From NCBI RefSeq assembly GCF_037042905.1, contig NC_087251.1, positions 15,254,001 to 15,318,000 of the forward strand: DNA of 64,000 nt. The letters are read 5' to 3'. Positions 8,101 through 56,548 of the stretch are shown here, one piece after another. Position numbers and translations under genes: made by a program. The stretch is from Lytechinus pictus. Its lineage: Eukaryota. How positions within the stretch are numbered: position 1 is the stretch's first letter; each line of letters starts with the position of its first letter. The notes beneath the pieces were generated by a model, which was not told the origin of the DNA, did not search any database, and was given only the letters and a program-made list of their open reading frames with translations.

Positions 8101-11100
8101 TGCGTTTCAAGGAAAAATACCTGCCAGGTACCCATTTACCTCACCTGGGTTGAGTGCAGCACATTGTGGATCAATTTCTTGCTGAAGGAAACTACACCAT
8201 GGCTGGGATTTGAACCCATGACCCTCAGTTTCAAAGTCCGGAGACTAATCCACTGGGCCACGATGCTCCTCATCTGTAGAGTCATAGAGACATCCGCAAG
8301 AAGAATATTGTTTTATTTCCCTACATATTATATCATATTTTCTTGCATGTATTTGAAGGAAAATGATTTCCAAACATTTATGCACTCTGTATACGTATTT
8401 TCAGCTGGGAAGTTGATGTAGATTCAATCAATAGCAATTGAACTCCCCATGAAATGAAATAAAAAGGAGAGAATTCCTTTTCCATACATTTGTTCTCTCT
8501 TTCTATTTGATCACATCTAGGGCCCATAGAAGAGAGTTGCATAATTTTGATTCTGATTGGTTGAAAATCAAGTTACGATTCAATTTTGAAGTTGCATTTG
8601 ATTGTTATTCTTTGTGCACCAGGTTCCTGGAATATAGATAAAGATTCATGTAGTTTTATGCAGTGTTATTCTGCTACATGTACATGTATGATGCATGACC
8701 TTTACAGAAGGAAAAAAAAACTATCCCTTTCATCATCTCTTTTTCTCTTGTCTTGTCTTGTCTTAGACTCCCTTTCCCATCTAATCTCCAACACAATGAT
8801 CAAATGGGCTGAAGAGAAGCATATTGAGGACCCTACCTTGGTGAGAGAGATGTTCAATCTATTACATCGTCAGTATGATGGAGTAGGAGAGGTAAGAATA
8901 TTCACTTCTTTCATGAGATCGATTATGATATATTGTTGGGACACTTTTTTTCACATTGCCAAGGAATTCTTGGACAAACTTACTATTCCCTGGTACACTT
9001 TAGTAGGAGGTGGATTGACACTAATGTGCTCTGGAATATGATTTTCTAAAGTAATTTTAAGTCTACCTAAAAAAAAAATCAAAGTGTTTGAAAAAAAAAT
9101 CTATTTAAAGCTAACGTAATTGTGTTATTAAACTATTGGGTATCAGAAAGTAAAAGTAGATTTTATTTCATATAATAGTCTAACTTCAATTTCAAGTTCA
9201 GTTAAAATTCCAAATCATCTTTCAGTTACCTTTATGTTTCATGAATTGAAACAAATATTAAATTCATGCATTGTAACAACGACTGAATAAGATATCAATG
9301 TCAGTATTTCTTGATGTTGTTGACTTGATTGTTTGCAAAAGCTGTCATTGATAAAGTGATATTTCCAGTCACTCAGAGCTCAGCTAGTATAATTGTTACT
9401 AATTGTATCTCCTTACAGCTTTGCCGTGCCTTGCAGAAATCTTACGTCGTAAGCAGCAATCAGTGTGATGACATCGTTCACCTCTTGACCTCGCTAGGTC
9501 AGATCAGGTCATTGCTGACCGTTCAGATGGGATCAGTAGAAGAGGAAGCACTCATTAAACATCTCTGGTAAGTTAAATGAAGGACTTGGTCTGTCTTATT
9601 GAAGTTTTGCGTGATGAAGTACATTATTTTGAAAGCAATCTGAACAAAGTGTATCTTATTAATACAAACATACATGGAGCCTCAGCCCAAAGATCTGTAA
9701 ATTCTAGAAATTGTTGTATTTCAAATCAAGACTTCATAGCTTGCTTAACTATTGGTCATGTCTTTGTGGTGGGGATAAAATATTTAGATAAGTCTAATGT
9801 AAAAAAATATTTGAAGACATACTAAAATTATTAATTGTATCTTTATTGCAACACTTCTTTCATTTATTTTTTTATTTGAAGACTTTCTCAAGTGTGTTTG
9901 AGTCAGTAGGTAAACTTGAATTTGGTGCAGTACAATTTCTTTCATAATTGTATCCACATCATTTCAAGATGATTTTTCATGATGTTATCATATAGGGAGT
10001 TGACGGACAACAAGGTATTCTACCAGCATCCAGACCTTATGAGGGCTTTGTGTGTCCACGAGACTGTCATGAATGTGATGGTCAATGTTCTTGAGAAGCA
10101 TCAGACGTCCATCCAACTTACCAGTGATCAGGAGGCCGAGTCCGCTGCCCAGAGCCAGGGAGGGGCTGCAGCAAGCACAGCAGCCACACCCAAATCACAG
10201 GTAAGGAATGAAATGTGTAGATCAGAGCTGGTTGCTCATCAAGGTGGGGTGTCTTTAAGCCCTGTAATGATACAATCAATCTTAAAGTCATCACGCTTAG
10301 TTCCGTTGAGGCCATCGTATTAATGTTACGATTGATGATAAGTGTATCTTTTGTGTGTTACAGGGATTTTCAATGGTGCTTTGCTGGAAAGACAAATATT
10401 ATTCAGTGGTCCTGTGGCCCCACGTGTCAAACTCTTTAATGTGGATGGTCTATGGGTATGGAAGGGGTGTGTGAATCATAGACTCTCTTTGGATGTTTAA
10501 GTTGGCTATTACTTTATCATGCATTTCATATCTCTGCATTGAACGGTGTTCCTTACGAAATTATTCATGTTTATTTGAGCATGCTAGTAGAGCAGAATTA
10601 TTTCCTTAAGATAAGCAAAATTTAAAAGAATAATTAAGTCTTCCATCATATTTTTTAATTTTGTTTTTCAGGTTGAAACTAAACAAACTATTAAAAAATA
10701 TATCTGAATACCTAAAATGTACTCATGGCATCTGGATGTAAGTCTGTGTATGTACTAGGGTTTTTGGAATATCAGCTTGTCTGATTATAAAATTAATTGT
10801 ATTTATACAATGTAGTTCTTTTCTTGGTCTCAGATTTGTTTTAAAGCTCTTATTTGGGTTAATAAAATTTAACAATATGTTTGTTTTGGGGTCTCCAGTA
10901 ATTTCATTCTGCTTCGGTTGCATTGAATAAACAACAAGTTTTGAAATAATATCCTCAAAAGTCAAACCCATCTATTGCTGATATTCCCCTCCCCCTCCCC
11001 CAAATGAAACCCCCTTCCCTGACAGGAATCTGATTTCAACCGTGAGCTAATCACCGCCTGCTCGCGCTTCCTCAGCTACTTTTGCCGTGTCAGCCGTCGA

Positions 11101-14100
11101 AACCAGATGGCCAGTTTCGATCACATCACTTACTTTTTAGAGCAGAGCGACATTGGACTTTGTAAGTGCTTGCAAAGATCGGAATGACAATGGAAATTTA
11201 CCATAAACAAACTCAAATTGCCTTGCAAGAGTTCACCGCTAACAAGAAATGGACTGTTCCGATCAGTTGTCTTGCCTGCAGACTGTGAGGGCGTCCTAAT
11301 TTTATATTTTGTGGTTGTTTTTTTTTTCACCCCTCACACTTGATGCATGCCTGGGTTGAATTCATATCAAAACTCACTGCATCATATTAATTGAACACAC
11401 TAATCATAGAAAATAGATTGCATTGGTAACTCAGATTTTTTGTTTATGTATAGTTATGTAGCCATTTGTAACAATAACATTTACACATTAATACCATAAG
11501 TAGTGGATAGGAATCTTAAAATTCTTAGATATTATTCTTTGTATTAATATAAATTGAAAGTATCAAATCGGTAAATTTTTAACAATAAAACTTTGCCTGA
11601 ACATCTTCATATTACATTATACACTTATTCATTTGTCATTTTCTAAATTGTTACCAAATTACCTTTGACACATAGTAATCAATTCTTGTAATTTAAACCA
11701 TTGCACAATATACACGCTGGAGTATTTTTTTAAGGATTTGTATTCAGTTAGGTCATGACAAATTATCTTGATGATTTGTTATAATAAATGTAAAATTTTA
11801 TTCTGACCATTTATTAATTAGTTTAATAGGGCTAATGAGTCAATTCTGAATTTTTCTTTCAAATCAAGTATCCGTACATCCATATTCTTTTCATTTATTT
11901 TCATTTGTTTGACAGGTACTCTATTTGATACATGTATATGAATTTCAATACTATAATCTTCCTTTGAAATTGATTTGATTATGCACAATAATGATAATTC
12001 AAAGATGGTGTAAAGTTTTGAGGAAGTGTCAATCCTCATTCAAATATGATGCAGCAGAGCTCAGCAATGTTTTTTGTACTGTTCAGATAAGGTAAGACAA
12101 GTCACACCAATTATTAATGCACTGTATATGCTTCAAGTCTTTAAGAAATAGTCCAAAATTGCACAAGAAAAGCCATGACATTATAATGGTTCTTCTTGGT
12201 ATCATGACCTAAAAATTATTTCATTATTTCACCATCAGTCATGTTGAAGGATGTCGGTGTTTTTACTCATGAGTATGCAACTTTGGACATATTTCACAAT
12301 TCAATAGCGCTTAACTTCAGAAGAATTTGATCGATCCCTAGTTGCTTGTTACATTGGAACAAAATAAATGACTCCTTTCCAACATATTTTTAAGGCTTCA
12401 GTGACTTTGTACACAGAAACTTTGCTTAGCTCTTTTGTGACATGTTTGAATGAGCCTATACACAGGCCAAACTTCCTATTCCGACTTACATTGGTTTGAT
12501 ACAGGTATATGGGTTGATGATATTTTGGGTTGTCAGCATGCTTAGTTTTTTATTGACATAGTTAATAGAATAAATGGAGAGAATGAACATTGCTGTGGTT
12601 TATGTTTATATAGAGTGATCTACATATGAAGCATGTTAGGATGAGAGTGTTAATGTGTTAATCCATTTTGTCATTCAACTATGCACAAATTTCATGAATA
12701 TGAGTATCAAATTAAAGTAATTGTTAACAATTCTAATCCTCCTTAAAAAAGTACATCTTCAAAATTTATATAAACAAGTCTCCATTAGGTGCTCTTTAAC
12801 GTTATAATATGAAAAGAGATACATTTTACGAGCTTCTTTTTAAGACTTGTATTCTCAAATGGATACAATGATAGGAAAGATAAAGAGAAATAGCCGATTA
12901 TCATATTCACTGAATGTATGTATTTGTCGGGTTTGGTTTTCCTCTTATCACCATCTAATATTGCAGGCATTCACCTTTGCAATGTTTGATCAATTTCACA
13001 TCCTACAAACCATGCATTTTCACCAAGTAAAGGTGAAAGCAAGCTCATGGGGAGTGTTTCATCAACCTTTTTGGCTGACAAGTCAGATCTGACAACATTC
13101 CTGATTTTGATTGGCTGAGAAGCACTGTTACAATGGTAACTGTCGGATATAACAGGACTAGTCAGACAAGTGTTTGACAAGTCCTTTTAAGAAATGTTCC
13201 CCTGATCACATTGCAGCATTACAAAGGTGAATGCACTGTGACCTATGGTGACCTTTAACCTCACACCTCCTACCCTTCTACCCATGTTTTTTTTTATTAA
13301 CCCTTTGAAGCAGATGTGCGTTTACAGGTTCCTGGCCCGCCAGGCCCGGATGTGCCGTTCCGAGGACAGGTTTGCCCGTGAGCTCATCGCCAGCTGCTGC
13401 CGATTCCTCTGCTACTTCTGCCGCACCAGCCGGCAGAATCAGAGGGCGCTGTTTGATAAACTCCTCTACCTCCTTGATCACGGCTTCATAGGGCTGTGTG
13501 AGTAGACAAATGATTCTCATCATTGTCTTGAAGGTTCTGATGATGCCGACTCTCTTCTGTATTTAAGTCAATAAGCAGTGTATTCTCTGGCAACAATTGC
13601 CCTTTGGATAATGGGTCCCCAATATATGAAAATTTCTCAATATGGCAGATTCTTCAATGATGAAAGTCACTTAAAAATATATGATCGGCATAATGCTGAT
13701 CATAAAAATAGACAGTCAATACTATGAACCTTTGCAAGCAAGTGTATATTATTTGCTATGTCCATTACACAACTTGCTGAACTATAGTTGAGTTTCCATT
13801 TGATATTTCAAACATTGTCATTAATTTGTGTGTAAAGAAATAGTATGAAGCCTGTGAAAATTCAACTTGATTCTTGTAAATAATGTTGAAGATAAATATA
13901 ATAGTGATAATTATGATGAAAGGATCATTCTTGTTCAGCACATCACAAAATTAAAATTGTTGAATCATGCACAAATTGAATTCAACCCTTACATGTACTT
14001 GGCATGGTGTGCAGATGTATTTTTCCCAAAATGAAATAATGCTTGTTAATTTTACCAATGGTTTTTTTTTCACCATGGGAAGGAGAGCTCTATGTTTCAT

Positions 14101-17100
14101 GTAACTTTTATTTTTTGGAGAGAGCAATTGTTGCCAGAGCATACTTTTGCTCAGTATATGAATCTAAATGTATGTCTGCATATTGAAGGTGCATTAAAGC
14201 TGCATTAATAGTGCATTCAATTTTTACCAATAACAGGTCAGAACAATTTCAAATGGAGTAAGTGCATCATCATATTATGAAACCAAAGTATGATTTGAAC
14301 CTAAGAATGAAAAACCAACATGGAAAGGAATACCGAATGTATATTACAGCATTATTTCTCTTTGATAATCATATCATATTTTTAATTTGAATAACTTATC
14401 AATTTCGTTCCATGTCTTGGTGAATTGTTGCATTTGCTTTTAGTTTTTGTTTTGCACTTTAATTTGGAATGGATTTTATTGTTTGCTGAATTATACATGT
14501 AGAGCATGATTTTTAGCACAATTCTAGAGCATGGTTTGCATTTACTCAATTATTTCATTGATTGTATTTAAATGTCTCTAATGTACTAATGAATTGATCT
14601 TAACAAGTGATACAGTAGACCTCTTTCAATTTTGAAAGGGCAATGTCCAAAATAAAATCTTTTTAAATGTTTATAAGATATCACACAAAACTGTGATTTA
14701 ATCTTTTAGTGTAGTAATGGATTAATTCAGACCATGTTCGTAATTGAATCTGTTTAATGCATATGAATAGTGTGTCTATCAAATGTAACTATGAAATGAC
14801 AAATTTTATCTATGTATGCAGTACAGCTTGAAAAAAAAACCAACCATTTTCAGCCCATTAAAAACCAATATTGAAGATCTTTTCAAATGCATATAAAATA
14901 CACATTATGTTGTTTATTTGATTGATGAATGTGAAATCCAAAGCACAAACAATGAAAGCAACTATTTAACAATTCTAAGAACAATATCATTGAATTTCCC
15001 AAGAATAAAATACAATGTTAGGTTTGTTGAGAGGTGTGTTTTCTGTAAATTTCATTCATAATGATGTAGGAAGTTAAGACAAATTTTTAGTGCCAGCTTA
15101 CTTTTTTTTATTTGATCCTAATTTAAATCAATGAACCTATAGCTTACCCATCATTACGAGGTTCCTGCCCCTTGGATGTAGCTGCTGCCTCCCTGATGGA
15201 CAACAATGAACTAGCCCTCGCACTCAGGGAACAGCACCTGGAGAAAGTCATCACCTTCTTGTCTAGGTGCGGGGTGCAGGACAACGCCCGTCTGAGGGCC
15301 ATGGGGAAACCCCTCACTGGATGGGACCCTCTAGATGGAGAGCGGTATCTGGATTTCATGAGGCATGCTGTGTGGGTCAATGGTAAGAGAGGATGGAGTC
15401 GTCAAATGAAGAGGCGGAAGTGGAGAGGTGGGATAGGTTAATCCATCGATTACTAAAATTTCTTGATATACAACCTTTTCTGCTTTCAACCTGTTAAAAC
15501 TATTAAAGAAAATTTAATATGAAATTGAAATGAGTCAAAATTGGAGATTCTATATTTTTATTTTATTATATTTTAATTATTAATGTTTGAAAAAATGTTC
15601 AATATATATATATATATATAAATATAAATAGTAAAAGGTTAGAGAAAATGGAAATAGGTGTAATTTCCATTTTATGATTCCTATGACAGGAGAGACTGTT
15701 GAAGAGAATGCTAACCTGATAGTGAGACTGCTGATCAGACATCCTGAGTGCCTTGGCCCAGCCTTGAGAGGGGAAGGAAAGGGCCTCCTAGCAGCCATGG
15801 AGGAGGCTATTGATCTCTCAGAGACAGCAGAGGAAGGGTATCTCATCTCTGCCCCTACCATGGCAATCAGTGAAGAGGATGGAGAGAGTAGACCCATTGA
15901 TGGGTGAGTAGGGGCATTGGTGATTTAAATGATTGCAGGAGTCAAGAAGTAGGATATTGAAGACTTATTAATGGATATAAGTTGAGCAACTATACACTGC
16001 TAAAGAAAGAAAAAAAAAGAGTTAAATTGATAATCACTTCTGACTTTTTGGTGGCAGCAGTGGGATTAAGGAACGAGGCTCACGTTTAGAGGTTTCTATA
16101 ACGCATTGAGCCTTGTGTATGTCTCAGCTCAAATGTAATACTTCATGTACTCAATTAATTTCTATGTGTTTCAGTTAATTCTGCAAATGGATGGGTATAA
16201 TATTTCAGTTGTCATATTCATAGTCTACAGTACATCAGGACCTACAAATATTGATCTTTCTGTGAATTTTCAACCCTGCTGTTTCTATTCCAGTCAAGAT
16301 GATGAAGGTGATGAGGACGAGGATGATGTGGACACTGGTGGAGCCATCCTGACCTTCTATGCAACCCTGATAGATCTCCTGGGCCGTTGCGCCCCTGATG
16401 AGAACCGCCTCTCACAGGGCAGAACTGAACCCCAGAGGATCAGGGCCATCCTGCAGAGTCTGGTCCCTCTGGATGATCTGGTTGGGGTGCTCAACCTCAA
16501 GTTTGTCCTGCCTTCTCCTCAGAAGATTTATGAGAAGAAAGATGGTAAGAACAGAGTGACTTCTAGATAGCTGAGAATGGGTCAAGTCATTTACAACTGA
16601 ATTCTCTAGATCTCCTAGGCTTTGTGTAAAGGACTTCCTGTTCTTATATACACAGGTTTGATTGTAAATTGAAATATTGAGAACATAGTGCAAATTGATT
16701 GGGTGAAGGTTGCCATGTGTGATTCAATAACCGTTTTTTGTTGAAAGTGTATCATGTGATGATAATCAGTGATCCTCCCATTTTGTTCATAAATTGTCTG
16801 TATACCAGTACCAGTGTAAAGTACTGGTCTCAACGTGAGAACACATGTAGGTCTAACTAGATAAGACACAATTCTTTGAATGGGTCCTCCATTGTGTACA
16901 AACAATATAGCTCTTGAAATGGTATTGTATCTAACCTGGTTGGATCCACAGCTGCATTATGGTATACTGTACATTGGTAATAGTGGATAGCATTTAACAC
17001 TCATGAATGGATGGCATCATAGAGAATCTGTGATCCACTGACTCGTTTCCCATTCTTCCCCTCAGATGGAGCTGGTAAACCATTGGGTGCTGATCTGAAG

Positions 17101-23100: not shown

Positions 23101-25203
23101 TGCCAATGCTCTCAGAGTTCATTATACAATTTACTTTTTAAAACTGCTCAGAAACGTATTTCCTGTTTCATTTACATGTAATTCACCTTTCTTTCCTTCG
23201 AACAAAGTTTCTCTCCTTTACCAAATAAAAAGGCTATTTCAACATTCGTATAACCTTCTGATACCATTGAAATATATGTACTATTTATGCAGTATTTAAC
23301 TGAATGTTTGATGATATGTGAAATAGAAAGTTTTCACTCAATTTTCCTTGATTTTGTTAATGATATACAGGGTGCAATGGAGTCTCCCCATGGTTATAAC
23401 CCACGACCCATTGATGTCTCAAACATTACACTCACAAGAGAGATGCAGGTAAGTCTCAAGAACAACATTTTCATTCTATTTTATTTTGTATGAAATGACA
23501 AGAAAGTTTAGCAGGGAGAAATTGTCTTTTAGTTATATGAGACTCTTATATGTGTTTAGTATGTGTGTTTCCTAAATGACAATGAGACTACTTCCACACT
23601 CTCAATTTTTACTTAGTGACTAACATTTCCTTAGGCTTGATGAAGGGTCCAAAAGATCCCATACCCAATTATACTAGTATACTAAAGGCTTAGTATCAAG
23701 ACATTATAGGGTCCGGCTTTTTATTAATAATCAGAGTCAATTTCAAACCAATGGTCAAGAGCCCTTTGTGACCAAAGCCAGGAGCAGGAATCCTAAAGAA
23801 TATCTTGTTAATTTTAAAAATTCAATTTTTACGAAGAGAAATCAATGTTGGGATTAGGAAATGAATGTCAAAATACCAGGTATGGTGAAGCCCCTGAAAA
23901 AATAATAATCTTTTTAACTCTGCCCGTTTTGATCAACTCAAGTCACATTCTATTCACAATACACACAGAGTGCATTAAGTTTATTGTTCGTACACACATA
24001 CACAATAGTGATGTGTGCATCGCTTTGTACTGTGTACACACAAAGCTTTTCTTTACAATAAGCCAATCAAAAGCTATTGTGAGCTGCATTAGCATAGTCC
24101 ACGCAAAATCCCTCTTAAGGTTGCACCTTGAAATTAATGTGGCGCAGGAGAGTTGAGAGTTAAGTTGTCAATGCTATTAAGCTCAATCCTCATGTAGAAT
24201 TTATTGGTATTGATATGGGCTTTGATCTATTATTGTTTGCTTTTTCTCATTCATTGCAGAACATGGCAGAAAGGCTAGCAGAGAATGCCCATGATGTATG
24301 GGCCAAGAAAACCAAGCTAGAAATGGAACTAAGAGGTCAGTTCATTGAAAAAAAATATCTGATGAAATCAACCTAACCCTCAAAGTCTTGTGATAAAAAT
24401 GTTCAATTTATTCTTAAGCATTTTTTTTTGTAAAGTGAATTTGTTTTATGCCATAGATGAGTTGTGGTAGAATTGTAGGATGGCAATTAGGAGATATTAG
24501 ATTGAAATCCTCCTACTAGTCAAAGCTGAATATTAACACAAAACTTTGCTGTAATGTATTTCCTTTTGAGGTTTGAGATGAGAGTCAAGTGATCATTTAT
24601 ATGAATATGATACTCTAATCATTAATGAGGAGCTTATGTTCATAAGTGATGTACATTTACATGTAATTCAGGGGAAATTTTCAAGGTCAAGGTCAACAAA
24701 AGATGACATACAGTGTAATTAGTGTTTTAAAAAGGTTTCCATTAATCCATTTCTTCATTAATGTAAGATCCAGAGATCACACTGGTAAGGGAATATTCAG
24801 AAGTACAAGTATAAGGGAAATGATGTAAATTAACTATTGTTTGGTCCTGCCTCATTTTCTTAGCTTTCAGATCAACATTTTTATCATGATTTTTATGAAA
24901 GTTTTTTCTGTGATTGATGAGTTGTAGAAATTAGTAATTTCATGTGAGGGAAAAGAATGGAAAAATATTGCAAACTTAAAAATATTTAGGTGTATGAACC
25001 ATGAAGATTTACCCTGACCCTTACCCTGACATTTTTCCTCAAACAGGAAGTGGTTGCCACACCCAAATGGTGCCCTTTGACATCTTGACAGACAGTGAGA
25101 AGAAGAAAGATAGAGACATGGCACATGCACTGCTCAAGTTCCTTCAAGTGAATGGATACAGGTTGCAGAGGTATGTGTGGGTTTGTACCAGCGATAGTGA
25201 GGG

Positions 25204-25234
<31 letters not shown>

Positions 25235-28200
25235 GGTGGTGGTGATGATGTGGTGATGATGTGGTGATGGTGGTGATGATGGTGATGAGGATGATTATTA
25301 TACTGCTGTAATTATAAAACTGATGTTGGTAATGATGTTGATAAGGATGATGATGATGTCATTGTTGTAGATGATTATTCTGGTGATGGTAATGATGTTC
25401 TGATAATAAAAACATGATGATCCAGAGCTGTGTAGTACGTAAATCATATGATTACCTTTAAAATGTGATTTTTCTAGTCTAGTGGAAGCAACCAGTTTCT
25501 TTTTTCAGCATCTTCTTCATCTCGGCAATTATGAGTTTTAATATAAACTTACATACATGTACCCTCTCGTAAAATAAATTCAAATGTATACTGTATGTTG
25601 TTTACTTTAAGTTCAATATTTTATTCATGATCATAACAGTGAAGAGGAAGAAGCAAAGAAGAGGTAATATAGATTGATTTTATGAAGGAATCATGGTTGT
25701 GTTGTGCATGTTTTCATTTTGTATTTGTACATGGTTTAATAGGGGCTTGAATCATTAACAGCCAAATCAGTTGAACTGTAGACCAATTAAAAAGATGATA
25801 TCCTCTCTCTTTTAGAATTTATTTCAGCTGTTGGTGAATCCCCTTCCCCTTCCCTGTTTTTGTGCATGTTATAGATATGCCCTTGGTGTCGTGGTTTGGA
25901 TATGATTTAGTAAAGTATGATTCAATAAGTCATAAATCTGCCAAACGAAGACAAATTTGAGTGTGTTTCTCTGTTAGCGCACTTTTAAAATATTTGAGTT
26001 GCCACTTGATGTAGGCCATGTGTTTTGTGCATGTAAGCTGTTGTCCAGGTCATTGACAATTTTATTAGTATTCATGATATCAATATTTCAATGTATTGTA
26101 TTTTGGAATTTTAATATTCAGTTCCGGAAAAAAATCTATGAGCCAGTTCTGAGGCTTGCTTACATTTACAGATTCACAGATACATGTATTCATTACCTAC
26201 ATGTACATGTATCCATGCCAATTTGATATTGTGCTGTTTGTCAAATGATTCTGTTGCAATTATATGTACATTAGGTCTGGTGGTCAGTTGTGAAATAGGG
26301 ATAAAACTTGTATTTGGTTGGTTGTTTTGTTTTTTCATTATGAAATAAAGAACCAGATTAGTTGTCATTTCTTTTTTATAATTATAATTTTTCATTATAT
26401 GAAAATATCAATAAATTTCATGGGGGACAGAAATATCTTAGTGTAACATAGACATCTCCTGGCAGGTTAGGGTACGGGTTAGGGTACATAGAGATTACAG
26501 TGTGATGTATAATTCTTGACTGTAGTTGGTGTTAGTTTCTGCATGCATGTTTTACTTCATATTTTGGAGTTGTATAATTAGGTAGATTACTTTCATTTCT
26601 AGATTATCTGTAATGATAAAGTCATGGTAGATTATTGAAGACTAGCCAGTTTGTTGTTGATGACTTTCATTGGTCATTGTTTCAAAGATTATTTGTTGAT
26701 TTGTCTTAAATCGATATTGTAAACAGTGGTTTTCCTGCTTGCATTTTTGCATGAAGGTTTGAATTGATGCTGATTGATTTTTTTGTCAATTTTATTTTAA
26801 CACTTTTTGAACCGATGACAGAAATGCATTTATCAGCCGAGCAAAGTAAGTATGGTTGGATAACCCATATGAAACATACATGTTCATTTTCAAATGAATA
26901 AGGATCAAAATTCTTTTTAATTATGGAGTTGAAACTGCTTTATGAGAAATCACCCTCAATTATTTAAAGTTTGCCGCTCTAGACAAGGCATGTAATTGAG
27001 CACTATTATAATCATCTTGCAATGATTATTTCTCATTGTGGATGATTTTCCTTACAGACACAGCCTATCTATGGATCATGATGGCATCATCAGAGGACAT
27101 AGCACCATAGAGAAAAGATTTGCCTTCAATCTCCTTGACAAACTCCTGCATTATGTGGACAAATCACAGGCAAATCTCAAACCAATGAGGCGCAGTCAAG
27201 ATGGTGGGTACTGTGATGGTTTGAACAGTTATTGTGATTAGACAATTTATAATATTTTTTTAAAAACTTTCTTTGATCAGCTTTATTCTTTAAATATGCA
27301 AAGGTATTTTCATCTTGTTGCTACATTTTGCATTTCAAATTTTATGCAATAGAAGTAAATAGATTTTGATTACAGAAAATATATTTCAAATAATTTTTTT
27401 TCCGATTTGTGGAGAAAACAGTGGTTTTGACGTTTACACGGCATTGCCAATTTAAGGATTTTTATGATCATTTTCCTCGCTTTTTGGTATAACACAAGAG
27501 GTATTAATGTTATAAATATGTTAATGTTATAAATATGTCCACTCCATGTGTTATTTTGAAGGAAAAAAAAGTTCTGGGATGATGAATTCCAGATCTGGCC
27601 ATGGTAGATATCTAAGTTGAGAATATGTCTAGAATCCATCTTGTACACAGTTCTAAGTTTACCAATGCAAATGACATGATATCCAATGTTGGTTTCACTT
27701 ATCCAGCTTTCCGTTCTTCCAAGAAAGAGAGCTCAGGAGATAGAGGGTACAAGTTCTTTGCCAAGGTATTTTTACTCTATATTTTTAATGAATATTTTAT
27801 TTAATGTATTTACAAGTTAATATATGTGAGAGAAAAAATATTTTTTACTCTTTTTGCTATCAAATAATCTATATTATGAATATGATCATAAATATGAAAT
27901 AAATTTGCTTGATGGTTAAAATGTAAAGTTACCCATTTGAAACCTTCTCCTATTAATAGAACCACCTCCACCCCCTGCTTCATTTCCTACCATAGCATAT
28001 TCCTTAATAATTTTCTGCATCCTAACTCAAAAGTAGTATTACTCTTACTCCTTCCTTTTACTTTCATCTCATAAATGTCATTTTTTTAATTATCTGGATA
28101 TCGCAACCTAGATTTGAGGGTAACAAAATAAAAAAAAATAATCCTAAATCCCAATTGACTGAATTTTATCTCCAGGTTGTTCTTCCTCTGATTGAGAAGT

Positions 28201-46200: not shown

Positions 46201-49200
46201 ATTTCACAGGTAACAAAGTGTGCTATCAATAATGTCCATGTTGGTTTTATTTTCACTGATGTCACTTGTCCAACCTTACTGAAATTTCCTCTTCTTTATA
46301 TTGTAAATGCTGCCCAGAAAAAAATTACATCTTGTGTATATGCTAAATGAGATCTTTTTTAATTGTACAAATATTGGCTTATACCAGTAAAGTATAAATT
46401 AAGAGCATGTTAGAGTCCTTTTCATGACAATCCAACTCATTTGTTTAGAGATAGGGTAATATCTCTGGCTCAAATCTATCATCACCATGAAAAATTACAA
46501 CAAAAATATTAAATCCAGACATGCCCAGCCTCTAGTCTGATGCATGAGATTTACACACCAGGGACTCTTGCTTGTCGTCACTATATATCTGTCTCATACC
46601 TACAAGTGCAGTACTCCATTCCTTCATACATCATACACAACAATTGGTGATCCCAAGTCAAGATAGTGTGCAGACTAAAATATTGTGTATTATCTGTCTT
46701 TGTGACTACTTATTTTTGTGATTCTGTGTAATTTTAAAGCATTTTCTCTTTTCTCTGCAGAAAGAGACAGACAAGGAAGTGCGTGACTACCTACTCCAGC
46801 AGCTGCATATTCAAGAGAAAGAGAAGGTGGAGGAAACGGCCCGGCTGACAGCCCGTAGTCATGCCCAAGCCTATTTATCACGAAAACCATCCGTATCTTT
46901 CTCATCATCACCACCCTCATCATCATCTTCTGCTTCAGCTCCTGCACTCGCATCTTCTTCTGCTACCAGCACCACTACCAGCACCTCTTCCTCTCCTCCT
47001 CCTTCCTCTTCTTCCTCCTCCTCCCCATCCTCAGTAGCTCCTCAAGAGTCTCCCCAGCCGGCCCACATTAGAACCCGGAGGCAGTCCATAGCCGCCTGGC
47101 AGTCTGCTGCTTCTCGTGTCACTGCTGCTCGCATAACTGCAAGTGTCTTGGGTTTTTCTCTTCCCTTCGTTTCGCTTTTATATTGCTTCAAGTTCCCTAC
47201 CCACTTTCAAGATTTCAATTTGCCCTTGTATAAACGAGCATATGTATCAGCCATAATTTTTACAAAATCCAATCATAGATTTATAAAGTTAGGTCAGTTT
47301 ACCTCTGAATAAACCTTGACCATGATTGAAGAATCCAATGACAGATTTCATTTCCACAAAGAATTCTTAGTTAAGTTTTAGTAAAAAAAAAAAGAAATCA
47401 TGGTGATATGATGAAATGGATAGCAATACAATACAGAGGACTGTAGATTTTAGTAGAAATCAGGATTGTTAACATGTCATGGATATTTTTCATAAAATTT
47501 TAAAACATGGTGCAATTTTCTCATTTAAATAAAAAATACAAATACATAATTCAAAATTCATAATGCTGGCAACATAGTATTTTGATAGGTTTTATAAAAG
47601 ACAAGAATTGAAATTTTTATGTAGGTCTTATTCCTTTGTTTTTTTTACATAATTTTGATGATTTTTAAATGCTGTTTATTATTTTCTTTGTACGGCCTCC
47701 ACTAAAAAATTCATGTGACTTCCAAATGTAAGTCTTTTCCATTTGTCATTATACATTTTTATGACATGAAAATAACAACTAACAAGAGATATCTGTCCAG
47801 TACATATTTTTCCCTTTCCATGCCATATTCCGACCCCTTCATAGAATTATACCATCTGCAATAAAAATGTCCTTGCAATATATATCCTTCATTAAATAAA
47901 CTCTTAATTGTAGTACCTTATAGTAATTGTAGCACCTAAGAATGTTGCCCTTTCTTACAGTATAGGTATACTCTAGCATTAGAGATTCTGTTTTCCTCTT
48001 TTATTTTCATGAAGGGGATGGTGGTATGAAAGATAAAAAATGATATTTGAAAACAATCTTTTTTTTCTTCCTTGGGGGTTGAAAATGCATCTTACATGTA
48101 TATTCAACTGTATGATAAAAAATAATCTTAAATTATAAAAAAAATCAGCTAAAAGAAATGGCTGAAATATATTAGAAACGAAGGGCCATTTTTTTCTCCA
48201 AACCTCATTCATTTGTTACAACAGTTAACAATGTGTTCCCAGATATGAAATGCCAAAAGCCTATTATTGATAGCCCGGCTGGAAACAAAATGCAGGAGGA
48301 ATTACTGAAAATTGATGAGGTTGGAGGAGTGCATGTTGTATTTGATGCTGTGCTGTGGAATTCTTAGTATATTGTTGCTGTTTCCATGTACATTTATTTG
48401 CACAGCCTGTTCACCATGCACTGCTCATCCATCTATCTTCTCTTGAAATGCTGTTAATACCATTCTTAAAAACAAAATTAGTTCTCTTTGAGAGAGAAGG
48501 GAGAAGAAATAATTTCTTCGTATTGAAAAAAAAAATGGGGTTCCTAAAAACAAAATTGATTGTTCTTTCCTTGAGGGAGGGAGAGGGAATAATTTTTTCT
48601 GATTTATAAGATGATTTGGATTCTCAATATCAAAATTAATTGTTCTCTTATTAGAGAGGGGAGAGTGATCATATCTTATTAAAAGAATAATGGGATTCTT
48701 AAAAATGAATTGGAATAAATTAGAAGAGGAAAAAAATATCGATAGATTAAGAAAAAGAGCATAATCATTTAAAGCATAGTTTAATCAAGTTATTAATTAT
48801 ATTTGTTAATAGAATGATTATTTGAATGCATCATATGTGTATTAAATAATGAAGTTTCTGCTTGATTTAACTCTATCAGTTACATGTTTTTAGCTAGACA
48901 TTCCTCTTTTATCCCTGTTCATTGTTTTTTTTTTCTTTACTGCTTTTTAAAATAAGGACCTATTCCCTTAATTTTTCTGAAGATAACCCCATTACCAAAA
49001 TGGTTACTTTATGAAATACAGAGCCTACATAAAACCAAACAAAAAGTCATTACATTAACACACCTTTTTTGTTTTATTCCATATTTTTAAGGTGAAAGGT
49101 CTTCAGAAATCTTTTTTAAGAGAAAAAAATATTGTAATGTTACATCTATATAAGGATTGATGATTATAGCATGACCATTGTGTAACAAATGTAAAGAGCT

Positions 49201-52200
49201 ATAGGAAGCCAAAATTTCTACATATGAAGACCATGCTCATATTGAAATTCTACGTATCCTGATTTTTCATATTTTCTTTTCATACTCTCATACTCTATAA
49301 TACCTTCCAAACTATAGAATGCCCAGTAAAGTTTACCAATATTCATTGTGCATTTGTATTTCTTGTGCTGTGTTTCTATGGGGGTTGTCTAGAGTCATGT
49401 ACAGACAGTGTATGGCCATTATGGTTTCAATTTGCATACAATATGGGTATGTTCTTTACATGTATGCTGCTTCTCTTCCCAAATAACATCTTGTAATATT
49501 GTGTCCAACTTGTGGTTCGGCCATATTCTCTCAATTATGGGCTCCGGTCCTTCCCCTTTAGAAGTGCCCTCATTATTTCTTGGGAAAATGGTAACCCCTA
49601 GTCTTTCCTGTTGATAATATATGTAGTGCGTCCGTGAATGATGAACATTTCCCTTTCATTTCTCTTGAAAAGATCAAGATCATATTTACCTTTGTAATCC
49701 CTTTTAATTTTCTTTTCTCATGAACTTTTGATGATTTAAAATCTCAGTAGTGATATAAAAAAATGTAAGAAACTCCTTAACTTTCCTATATTCTATTTTC
49801 ACCTCTTTTCTGCCCTGTAAATTTCTAAGATATACATGTACATATATATCAATAACTATGCATATTTACTTGTAAATACTAATGTATAGACTTATGGTAA
49901 TATTAATGATCACTTGGCTTCGCCTTTCACAAAATATGGCATATCAATGTATTCTCACATTTATTAACAAAGCTATATTAAGGTCTGAGATTATTATTCA
50001 TTGCAAATTTTAGTAAATGCATATTCTAACTTGCTGCTCTAATCATTCCATTTATTTTCTTTCTTCATAAATTACATGACGGAATATCATATACTCCATG
50101 GCTCATTGATTTATTTGTCTTCAATAAATTTATAAATATTCATCTAACTCTCTTTATATATGAAATATAAAATTTGTGATTGAATTGATTAGATTTCAAA
50201 TTGTAAAGGATTCATACCAGCTTGGAAAAAAAAATGTAATCAAAAGAGGTTAGATTTTGCTTGCTTCATTAGTGGACTTGGCCACATGAATTAATGTTGA
50301 CAATTATCCTCACATAATTTTAGCCCAATCTTATCATGACTAGCATAAGATAACATGAAATGGTTCATAGGATTACATGTAATGTATTATTCATGTTATC
50401 GTTTATGTGGTCTTGACTCCGAAGTGTAATTTCATGTATCTAACGTTCAGCTCGATTTAAGTGTCAGTGACACAACGGCCATTTGTTATAGAAAGCATGA
50501 TCTGAATAAATTCAAATAATGGAAATCCAGCAAAACCATGATATATACATGTATGATATATTTATTAAAAAGTTTTATGCATATTGCTCTGAAGGGATGT
50601 CAAATGGTTGTCTATCACCCATCCTGATATTTGTTTACAAATCTTGGTGTGGCTGGCTTTCCATAGTTGATTGTGATTAATCACAATAAGCAAGGACATT
50701 TCTTTATTAGTATTGGCCTGGGGTTTGAGTGAAGATAATGATCACTGAAGTGTCACCTGGGCCCCCATTTCATTAAAAGTTGGTACAGAATGATAGCAAC
50801 TAATGCTAGAATGTACACTTCCATGACAACAGTGAAAATTCTGATTCCTGATTGGCTCAGGGTTCCAAGCCCATCAGGGAAATCAGGGAAAATTATTTTA
50901 CTTTCTTCCAGTCAGGGAAAAATTAGGGAATTTGATTTTTAAAAATACCTCAAATCAGGGAAAAATCAGGGAATTTTGATCAGCCCAAAAGTCGAGAGCA
51001 CGGTAGACAGTCAGACTCTGTTATATTTTGTTGTAATCAAAACAACATCCATTGAATGACTGGTTATGGTGGTACTAATTAATTTTACATTATTGTTTTT
51101 AATTAATTTTACATTGTTTTTATACTGAAAATACATGTAGTTCACTGCAACAACTTAGAAAACATGCGAAACTGGGAATGTGTTTAAGTAATTATCAGGG
51201 AATTTTGTTTTCTTGAAAAGCTGGAAACCCAGTGGCTCATCCAATATGAAAGATTGGATCCTAAACTGAAAGTTGACATTCCAGTAAGAGTTGCTATCAC
51301 AGCAACTTTTTTATGAAATGGGACCCTGGATGAAATCCTTGCATCTGATTGGCTCAGAGCAAATTTGTCAGTTAAAATCTCTGATAAAATTCTTCATGAA
51401 ACACTCCCCTGGTCTAAGAACCTTGGTTCTTCATAACTAATTTTGATGAGGATCAACTAAATGAACCAAGTGCTGAAGATTGAATCCTTATTTGTTTTAT
51501 TTTGCTTATGATTTTGGTCTTAACAGCAAACAGACTCTAAAGGATGGCAGCGTCATCTATACAACAAGATGGCTGCCAGTAAGCTGGTTCAGGTGGTTGA
51601 ACTTACCAAGGATAAGGTGATTGAACGCATCATCAACATGGCCCAAGTCCTCCATCGACTTCATCAGGTAGGTGAAACTTTCACTTGATCTTGCTTTTCT
51701 TACATTGTACCAGCAATTGCGATAGAAAATTAGTGTATGTTGGTCAGATGATAAGAGAATGATTGCAGAAGATCTAGTAGAGACCATGGTAGAGGGTAAA
51801 TGGGGAAAGGGGTAGACAGTTTAACACTAAGTTCGATGATGTCAAGAAATGTGCAGGCCTTAGTTATTATGTGGTTAAAAAAAGGGTTTGTGAAAAAAGG
51901 CAATAGAAGTGCAGTCGCCAACCACCTTGCTAGGGACAGAATCATATGTATATATGTATGGATGGTGATGATGATGGTGATGATGGTGATGGTGGTGATG
52001 GTGGTGGTGGTGGTGGTGGTGGTGGTGGTGGTGGTGGTGGTGGTGGTGATGATGGTGGTGGTGGTGGTGGTGATGGTGATGATGGTGATGATGATGATGG
52101 TGGTGGTGGTGGTGGTGGTGGTGGTGGTGGTGGTGGTGGTGGTGGTGGTGGTGGTGGTGGTGGTGATGATGATGGTGATGGTGATGGTGATGGTGATGGT

Positions 52201-54588: not shown

Positions 54589-55708
54589 GTACTGTGTTCC
54601 CCCACCCCTCATCCTCCTCCATTCCCTCTTCTCCTTCCTCCTCTCCCTCCTTCCTTCTCTATATATACATCTGTCACCTTTTCTGTCTGTTTGTATCTAC
54701 CTATCTTTCTTTCTTTCATTCTTGTTCACTTTATCATTTACTATCTTGTCTCCCATAGTTCTTTCAGTTCCTTCTCATTCTCTCTCACACTCATTCATCT
54801 TTCACCCTTTTTCTTCTCCATGCTCTAAAAATGTCTCTATTATCCCTTATACCTCATCTTCCCTTTTATTTATACCTACACATTTCTTTATATCTTCAAA
54901 TCCTCCCAAAGCATGTGACATCATGATGGTTTTACAATGTTTTCTTACACTGTTATTGGTGCCTGTGCTTGTATTGTGATGCTTTCATTGTTATACGTTT
55001 AGAAGTAGATATTAGGCACTCTTGTTGAATAGCTTAAGTTTTTATGTTAATGAATGCTGCAGACTTTCGAAGTAAACCAACTAGTCAATTAAGAAAATTG
55101 TGCGGATGATTATGTATTTGTTCAAGTCTTCACTACATATGCTGTTTGCTATTATTTTAACATATTAAGTTTAGTAATTATAATGTAAAGGATGATACAT
55201 ATAATCGCTAGAGGGTATTCATTTGTCTCGCAATCTACTATGGTCAACAAGGAAATTCGTGATCACTCTCGCAAAAAGTGTTCACTGGCTTTCTAGGAAA
55301 TTCGTGATCACTCTCGCAAAAAGTGTTCACTAGCTTACAAGTTCACGAGCTTTCGAGTGCCACTGCAACTCTTTATCAAGTGACGAAAATTATCTGATAA
55401 CGTACTCTATTTATACTAATCTCCAGGACCGTACGCACGAACGCGAGAACAATAGGTGGGCATTGATCCGTTGCGTCGGTATGCGGTGCGGCCGGTAATC
55501 CGTATATGCAAATAAGCCGGGGGTATATGCAAATACGCCGTGGGTCGGCGATATGCAAATTAGACAAAATTGGCGGGCTCGCTAGTTTCCCGTGGGCGGG
55601 GGCTGACTAGCTGAGCGGTCCCTCGTTCGGGGCCGGGAACGATCGTAACTACCGATCATAACTCACCCACCTGAACTCCCGAAAGAAAGAGCACACATAC
55701 GTGGCGCC

Positions 55709-56548
55709 TTGTACAGCAACGGCTACCCACGCCGTTTTATCAAGAACACTTTCAAGAAAAAACTACCACCAAGGGATCAGAAGGTTTTCAAGACTTACAC
55801 AGTCTTGCCATACATAGATGGCCTCTCACAACAACTTAAACGCCGATTAGAAGGTCACGGTATCCGAACGGTTTTCCGCTCGGACACCACCTTACACAAA
55901 CAGCTTGTACACCCCAAAGACCCTATCCCTGATCACAGACGTGATGGCGTAGTATACAACATTCCTTGCCAGGGATGTGACGGGTCTTACATCGGAGAAA
56001 CAGCCCGACCGATAGTTGAACGCATTTCTGAACACAAGCGCGATGTTCGGTTACAGCGAACCGACACATCCGCGGTGGCAGAACATGCTTGGGAGAAACA
56101 ACACCACCCAGATTGGGAGGGTGTACATTGCATTGCCAAAGAGAGACATTGGTATACACGCAGGATTAAGGAGGCTATTAGTATACGTCTTTGTCCTAAC
56201 AACTTCAACAGAGACAGCGGGATCGACATCCCCGACTTCTGGATGCGAACCATCAGACAGCACAATACCCCCTTGCCTGGCAGTGCACGCCGACCCGATC
56301 GTTCCCGGCCCCGAACGAGGGACCGCTCAGCTAGTCAGCTAGCGAGCCCGCCAATTTTGTCTAATTTGCATATCGCCGACCCACGGCGTATTTGCATATA
56401 CCCCCGGCTTATTTGCATATACAGATTACCGGCCGCACCGCATACCGACGCAACGGATCAATGCCCACCTATTGTTCTCGCGTTCGTGCGTACGGTCCTG
56501 GAGATTACTATAAATAGAGTACGTTATCAGATAATTTTCGTCACTTGA
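55709..56548 (+). pseudogene. C-terminal fragment of Penelope-like ORF (RT thumb/linker plus GIY-YIG endonuclease)
   Basis: NGYP…LPY…GVVYNIPCQGCDGSYIGET.R…R..EH…EAISI…NRDSG; RT core missing. Confidence 0.88.

Follow-up and report, generated by a model that had tools for sequence, protein, structure and literature searches.

Invertebrates carry a single RyR (ryanodine receptor) gene, and it remains an open question how one gene meets the needs of muscle, neurons, and eggs alike. In insects, a pair of mutually exclusive RyR exons, a and b (ASI), has been reported from Bactrocera dorsalis (PMC3989282) and Diaphorina citri (PMC9785964) and, across 26 species of insects and mites, in PMC6026295. 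In these papers, the pair is placed in the second SPRY domain, where it encodes 31 residues (about 1135–1165; PMC3989282 and PMC6026295), and its developmental and anatomical regulation is reported in insects. PMC7644089 describes alternative exons in divergent region 2 (DR2) of Caenorhabditis elegans unc-68, together with alternative first exons, and specific behavioural defects that follow exon deletions in this gene. Finally, PMC9741552 lists cases of tandem duplicated exon substitution in human RYR3, fly RyR, and worm unc-68; it describes the RYR3 and fly cases as "different region, convergent" and stresses the repeated origin of such events in genes of ion channels. Here, we describe two tandem exons, A and B, placed between one and the same pair of flanking exons in the RyR gene of Lytechinus pictus, within a stretch of 64,000 nt on NC_087251.1 (positions 15,254,001–15,318,000, forward strand) that we refer to as the window.

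The two exons are clearly related to each other. In a six-frame search of the whole 812-Mb assembly, exon B as the query finds exon A with E 4.1e-10 and 57% identity. Besides A and B, this search returned one weak match (E 0.57, contig 11) that belongs to no Pfam family; it was considered as a further copy and treated as a chance match. The downstream exon is single copy in the assembly, all such copy counts being lower bounds, and from these searches RyR looks like the sole such gene detected in the assembly, with a local duplication of one exon. Exon A matches the Protein Data Bank (PDB) chains of RyR1 at residues 2227–2265 (E about 4–6e-11, with 4.2e-11 for RyR1 chains), and exon B matches RyR2 chains at 2190–2228 (E 1.8e-13) and RyR1 at 2222–2265 (about 2e-13). 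Against the Pfam RIH family (PF01365), exon A covers profile positions 79–113 with 25.5 bits and exon B positions 77–113 with 33.9 bits, both above the curated cut-off of 22.3. The upstream exon covers positions 27–75 of the same profile and the downstream exon 117–175, so that the flanking exons bracket both copies. The similarity of A to B is far above chance, and the observed exon pair is confirmed.

The insect a/b exons are likewise tandem, similar exons in a single invertebrate RyR gene, one of which is used at a time. The present pair differs from them in its location: instead of mapping to the second SPRY domain, it maps about 1100 residues closer to the C-terminus, to the second RIH domain and the bridging solenoid (RyR1 2227–2265). 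It arose by an independent duplication, at a site other than the insect SPRY2 site. The RYR3, fly, and unc-68 events represent the same device in the same gene family, and the RYR3 and unc-68 pairs may or may not share the present site. The C. elegans gene, too, is the only RyR gene of an invertebrate and gains its diversity from tissue-specific alternative exons; the variants described there are cassette exons, an exon with long and short forms, and alternative promoters in DR2 rather than a homologous substitution pair in the RIH domain.

The RyR gene lies on the + strand and occupies most of the window, itself a part of contig 7 of the assembly, along which RyR-like open reading frames (ORFs) are listed. 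As the original prediction held from the sequence, the two paralogous exons share their flanking exons, are both open from phase 0 to phase 1, and have strong donors (Table 1). In exon A, the AG acceptor follows a pyrimidine tract rich in C, and the donor is GTAAGT. Exon B has a GTGAGT donor after 13497 and in-frame AG acceptor candidates that give a start at 13314 or 13344. Both exons are 3n+1 nt in length, and the predicted frame shift on double inclusion or skipping was reproduced when the exons were joined in silico. The frame stayed open through the upstream exon, A, and the downstream exon, and equally so with B in place of A. With A and B together, a stop appeared 21 codons into B, and with neither, a stop appeared in the downstream exon. 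The GC content of exon A (0.49, and 0.62 at third codon positions) is that of the flanking exons, and that of the introns is 0.30–0.35. Many textbook mutually exclusive pairs are alike in length, unlike A and B, which differ by 48 nt (136 versus 184 nt).

We propose that one ancestral RyR exon, the counterpart of the human RYR1 exon with codons 2233 and 2241, was duplicated in tandem. Each mRNA would then contain the exon ending at 10200, either A or B, and the exon starting at 15143. Because both lengths are 3n+1, inclusion of both exons or of neither shifts the frame and leads to an early stop, so that single-inclusion mRNAs alone stay open; the double and skipped transcripts would presumably be removed by nonsense-mediated decay, as is generally the case for such transcripts. 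The two proteins would differ solely in a stretch of ≈45–61 residues of the second RIH domain, where the bridging solenoid begins. Within this scheme, we infer the 5′ junction of exon A (10200>11026) and a functional difference between the A and B channels. We estimate a probability of about 0.8 that both the A and the B forms are productive, mutually exclusive alternatives that arose by tandem exon duplication.

RNA data bear directly on this reading. Four runs (X1, X10, X11, and X13) were aligned to positions 9900–15500 at 90% likeness. X1 consists of assembled contigs and the other three of raw reads, with X10 and X11 sampled at 6%; the threshold for listing a joint was three reads, and depth was about 1–10 throughout. 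X1, X10, and X11 come from one organism and are nearly identical to the window. X13 differs from the window at several exon positions and is therefore a run of a related organism. The raw reads from the organism of X1, X10, and X11 all share one mate direction, in keeping with a stranded library and a + strand gene.

Exon B is seen spliced on both sides. The joint 10200>13314 occurs in one 3758-nt contig of X1, which covers 9995–10197/10200 and continues into exon B, and in five reads of X10, two of X11, and one of X13. The joint 13497>15143 is carried by the same contig and by seven reads of X11, with none in X10 or X13. Exon A is seen spliced on its 3′ side, where three reads of X13, with two different starts and 62 letters on the shorter side, join 11161 directly to 15143 and skip B; this joint is absent from X1, X10, and X11. 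With mate directions summed, depth in the exon A bin is zero in X1, X10, and X11 and 0.94 + 0.32 in X13, and depths in the B bins are 7.7 and 2.44 in X1, 4.52 and 0.48 in X10, 7.28 and 2.87 in X11, and 0.69 and 0 in X13. Each exon is thus seen to skip the other, and usage varies between runs. Because exon usage differs between the RNA samples, tissue, stage, or species probably governs the choice of exon.

The acceptor of exon B proved to be slightly different from that foreseen. Of the two starts originally considered, 13314 is used in RNA, but 13344 is absent among the RNA joints. A minor joint, 10200>13311 (listed as 10198>13309, with the cut shifted by +2), is instead found in three reads of X11, with none in X1, X10, or X13. 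The two sites form a tandem NAGNAG acceptor (AAG-CAG-ATG, 13309–13314), and both 13311 and 13314 occur in RNA. Among the junctions originally put forward for counting, 11161>15143, 10200>13314, and 13497>15143 were found, but 10200>11026 was not listed.

Several of these results weigh against the proposed scheme. The 10200>11026 joint is absent from the listing in all four runs at the threshold of at least three reads, the direct RNA evidence for exon A is thin, consisting of three junction reads in one run of a relative, and the three runs nearest to the genome of the window have no reads on exon A. The difference in A and B usage between runs may be one of species rather than tissue, and the low depth may leave room for low-level double inclusion or skipping. 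Joints from A to B (11161>13311 or 11161>13314) and from 10200 to 15143 are likewise absent from the listing in the four runs. Because of the low depth and the three-read threshold, the absences of all three kinds of joint are weak evidence.

Could the exon A reads of X13 have been misplaced from another locus or organism, with A itself unexpressed? The reads are few, were placed at a 90% likeness threshold, and come from a run of a different organism. The joint is exact at GT..AG, however, with 62 letters on its shorter side, and it uses the same acceptor at 15143 as exon B. In addition, neither A nor the downstream exon has a second copy in the assembly, and the DNA sequences of A and B are too unlike to cross-map. 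We therefore regard misplacement as extremely improbable.

The same data could reflect a lineage preference without a regulated switch, such that the organism of the window would use B only, the relative mostly A, and the copy unused in each would be in the course of being lost. We consider this quite unlikely, even though the B-only runs all come from one organism and the run with the A junction from another. X13 also contains the single 10200>13314 read together with depth on B, which indicates that the relative uses both exons, and in the window the frame of exon A is open, its acceptor and donor are strong, and its GC content is exon-like. Moreover, just three runs of the window-like organism were examined, two of them as raw reads at 6% sampling.

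Sequence conservation provides a second line of evidence for exon A. A scan with exon A over 1.84 billion representative proteins returned 133 hits at E ≤ 0.001. Two of these, P0009 and P0010, match exon A at 43 of 45 (96%) and 42 of 45 (93%) positions, respectively, with no indel and with conservative changes only. Both are gene-caller ORFs that run from a genomic exon into introns. The intron flanks of P0009 align to the window solely via frame changes and stops, and those of P0010 are unalignable to the window past the pyrimidine tract on the acceptor side. A third protein, P0086, is much more diverged (51% identity) and has the same borders and the hallmarks of exon A (LIT-x-CSRFL, YFL, and IGL). 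A fourth, P0117, comes from a relative and is of the B type, with 77% identity over the core. Both copies are thus kept in relatives, A as P0009, P0010, and P0086 and B as P0117. None of the 133 scan hits is an A-type copy from a vertebrate or an arthropod.

We calculated a maximum-likelihood tree from 77 distinct 39-residue cores, after dropping segments shorter than 38 residues, those scoring below 95, and identical cores. The four A-type rows group together in a single split supported at 100/100, and exon B of the window pairs with P0117 at 96/83 among the canonical RyRs. The branch of P0086 is long (1.45) and its composition odd, and its placement with the A-type copies is accordingly less sure, which is a further point against the scheme. 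A profile built from the four A-type peptides found no match beyond the three known ORFs in a protein search, and a search of metagenome contigs for the DNA of relatives gave 111 pattern matches, of which none was confirmed.

Because exon A is open in three ORFs, forms one split in the tree, and has an observed downstream junction, we take it to be a maintained alternative exon and not a decaying copy. The idea of a decaying duplicate, against which the original prediction was to be judged, is rejected in view of the conservation of A, its exon-like composition, and the A junction; spliced downstream in one run and open in three ORFs, the copy survives that test.

A conserved exon A might nonetheless be rare or non-productive, either as splicing noise or as a poison exon in combination with B, so that no A-type protein would be made. 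The lack of any depth over A in X1, X10, and X11, the stop 21 codons into B when A is included with it, and the unlisted 5′ junction of A all fit such a role. We judge it improbable, since the sole A junction leads straight to 15143 with B skipped, which is the productive arrangement, and three ORFs preserve the frame free of indels, the introns of one of them being unalignable. A poison exon would, moreover, have no need of a conserved RIH-like peptide that scores above the Pfam cut-off. Overall, the original reading of a tandem-duplicated, mutually exclusive pair is supported by the reads that join A to the downstream exon, the joints of B, and the conserved open frame of A.

At the protein level, 16 of the 39 core positions distinguish A from B, and B is longer by 16 residues at the N-terminus. 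Exon B is of the canonical RyR type and keeps the four-cysteine motif. Exon A reads C-S..S..C where canonical RyRs have C-C..C..C, and it carries 14 further differences in the core. The two serines occupy the positions of RyR1 C2233 and C2237 in the residue numbering of the alignments. We surveyed the cysteine pattern in 136 fetched proteins. All four cysteines (C-C, C, C) are kept in 118 of the 136, and eight have serine at the second cysteine only (CS.C.C). Serine at the third cysteine is found in four, one of which also has serine at the fourth, and the A-type pattern (serine at the second cysteine and serine or threonine at the third) in three; the remaining three have no motif. Because each cysteine-to-serine change also occurs alone, in a single exon of other lineages, the two cysteines are, on this survey, not strictly invariant. 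The exchange of two conserved cysteines for serines in exon A, as first described, is therefore real as a change, but the positions themselves vary elsewhere (8/136 and 4/136).

The segment had initially been assigned to the central solenoid. It is the counterpart of human RYR1 exon 41, and PMC6182665 places it instead in the bridging solenoid (Bsol) and in hotspot 2 for malignant hyperthermia and central core disease (MH/CCD). A table in that source places C2233 in Bsol and in the same hotspot and includes p.Cys2233Arg (exon 41), classed as a variant of uncertain significance. In the review PMC10903462, a table includes C2237 among the S-acylated cysteines of RyR1. Because exon A has serines at the counterparts of C2233 and C2237, the latter being listed as S-acylated, the loss of a site for lipid or redox modification in the A isoform is a reasonable idea and may apply. 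A bolder version, which we hold only tentatively and think unlikely, is that the exon switch would act as a conserved natural toggle of cysteine modification in hotspot 2. On that reading, B would supply the full C-C..C..C cluster, including the counterpart of C2237, and A would supply serines at the counterparts of C2233 and C2237. If this were true, tissues that choose A would make a channel that is beyond the reach of lipid modification or oxidation at this site and that gates differently, and the switch would be the exon-level equivalent of the separate RyR genes of vertebrates.

Vertebrates vary the same segment between the gene copies RyR1, RyR2, and RyR3. The RyR1 chains, for instance, have ..TSCC.. 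where the RyR2 chains have ..ANCC.., with further changes at the C-terminal end of the segment. Whereas vertebrates rely on gene duplication, the present gene has undergone exon duplication, and one gene is varied by the choice of exon. The vertebrate-type copies that we fetched all keep the four cysteines, in contrast to exon A, which loses two. We found no description of an exon pair at this RyR segment in a full-text literature search that covered few of the subscription journals, consistent with the original view that the pair was not known to have been described. Public automated gene models may already carry both forms. The pair is apparently undescribed in print and represents a new site in a gene family known for this device.

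In clusters of the Dscam type, exclusive splicing is achieved by competing RNA pairing between docking sites and selectors. No such arrangement was apparent around the RyR pair, where no intronic complementarity beyond chance was found. The 4.9 kb of AT-rich intron sequence around the pair contain 28 pairs of inverted repeats, none of them distinctive, and the energies of 10 duplexes between splice-site flanks all lie within 1.5 standard deviations of those of dinucleotide shuffles.

The intron between A and B contains a dispersed repeat of ≈160 nt (13048–13209), about 100 nt upstream of the B acceptor. A first look at the assembly gave 1630 candidates for this repeat, and 40 scored copies on many contigs are ≈82–85% identical. 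Its RNA depth reaches hundreds to thousands on both strands in all four runs, with many loose ends. An 18-nt inverted repeat (12967–12984 and 13217–13234, 94% complementary) brackets the element, which is probably a short interspersed nuclear element (SINE) or an element like a miniature inverted-repeat transposable element (MITE). Downstream of B, the intron contains a 24-nt inverted repeat (13580–13603 and 14121–14144) that is 92% complementary, with 517 nt between its arms.

Table 1 Positions of the duplicated exons and their flanking elements in the window
Feature	Position	Strand	Properties	Basis
Upstream constitutive RyR exon	9996..10200	+	Ends in phase 0; donor GT at 10201 (GTAAGG)	Sequence
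Exon A	11026..11161	+	136 nt; phase 0 to 1; 45 codons + 1 nt	Sequence
CAG between paired NAGNAG acceptors	13311..13313	+	Minor form of exon B with one additional Gln	RNA joint, translation
Exon B	13314..13497	+	184 nt; phase 0 to 1; 61 codons + 1 nt	Sequence
Downstream constitutive exon	15143..15382	+	Begins in phase 1; common to both forms	Sequence

Elsewhere in the window, a 299-codon open frame lies on the + strand at 55649–56545, inside the RyR gene region (feature span 55379–56545), and it matches no Pfam family at E ≤ 0.01. A 56-residue open frame occurs twice on opposite strands, at 55414–55581 (−) and 56343–56510 (+), and marks inverted repeats of ≈170 nt. The 299-codon frame with its flanking inverted repeats resembles a retroelement end and may be one. 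Long runs of trinucleotides or of low complexity are present at 1965–2211, 24989–25311, 46722–47309, and 51733–52327, and they translate into poly-Ser, poly-His, poly-Gly, poly-Thr, or poly-Val, according to the frame. The run at 46722–47309 shares its frame with RyR-like sequence and may encode a Ser-rich insert.

To the question of how a single RyR gene serves several tissues, the SPRY2 pair of insects and the DR2 exons of the worm were the known answers, and the pair described here adds a third site. Its natural A and B versions, which differ at 16 of 39 positions and in two of four cysteines, offer a ready comparison for the role of this helix pair in gating, S-acylation, and redox sensitivity. 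RyR genes gain exon-substitution switches repeatedly and independently, and the L. pictus pair adds to that picture.

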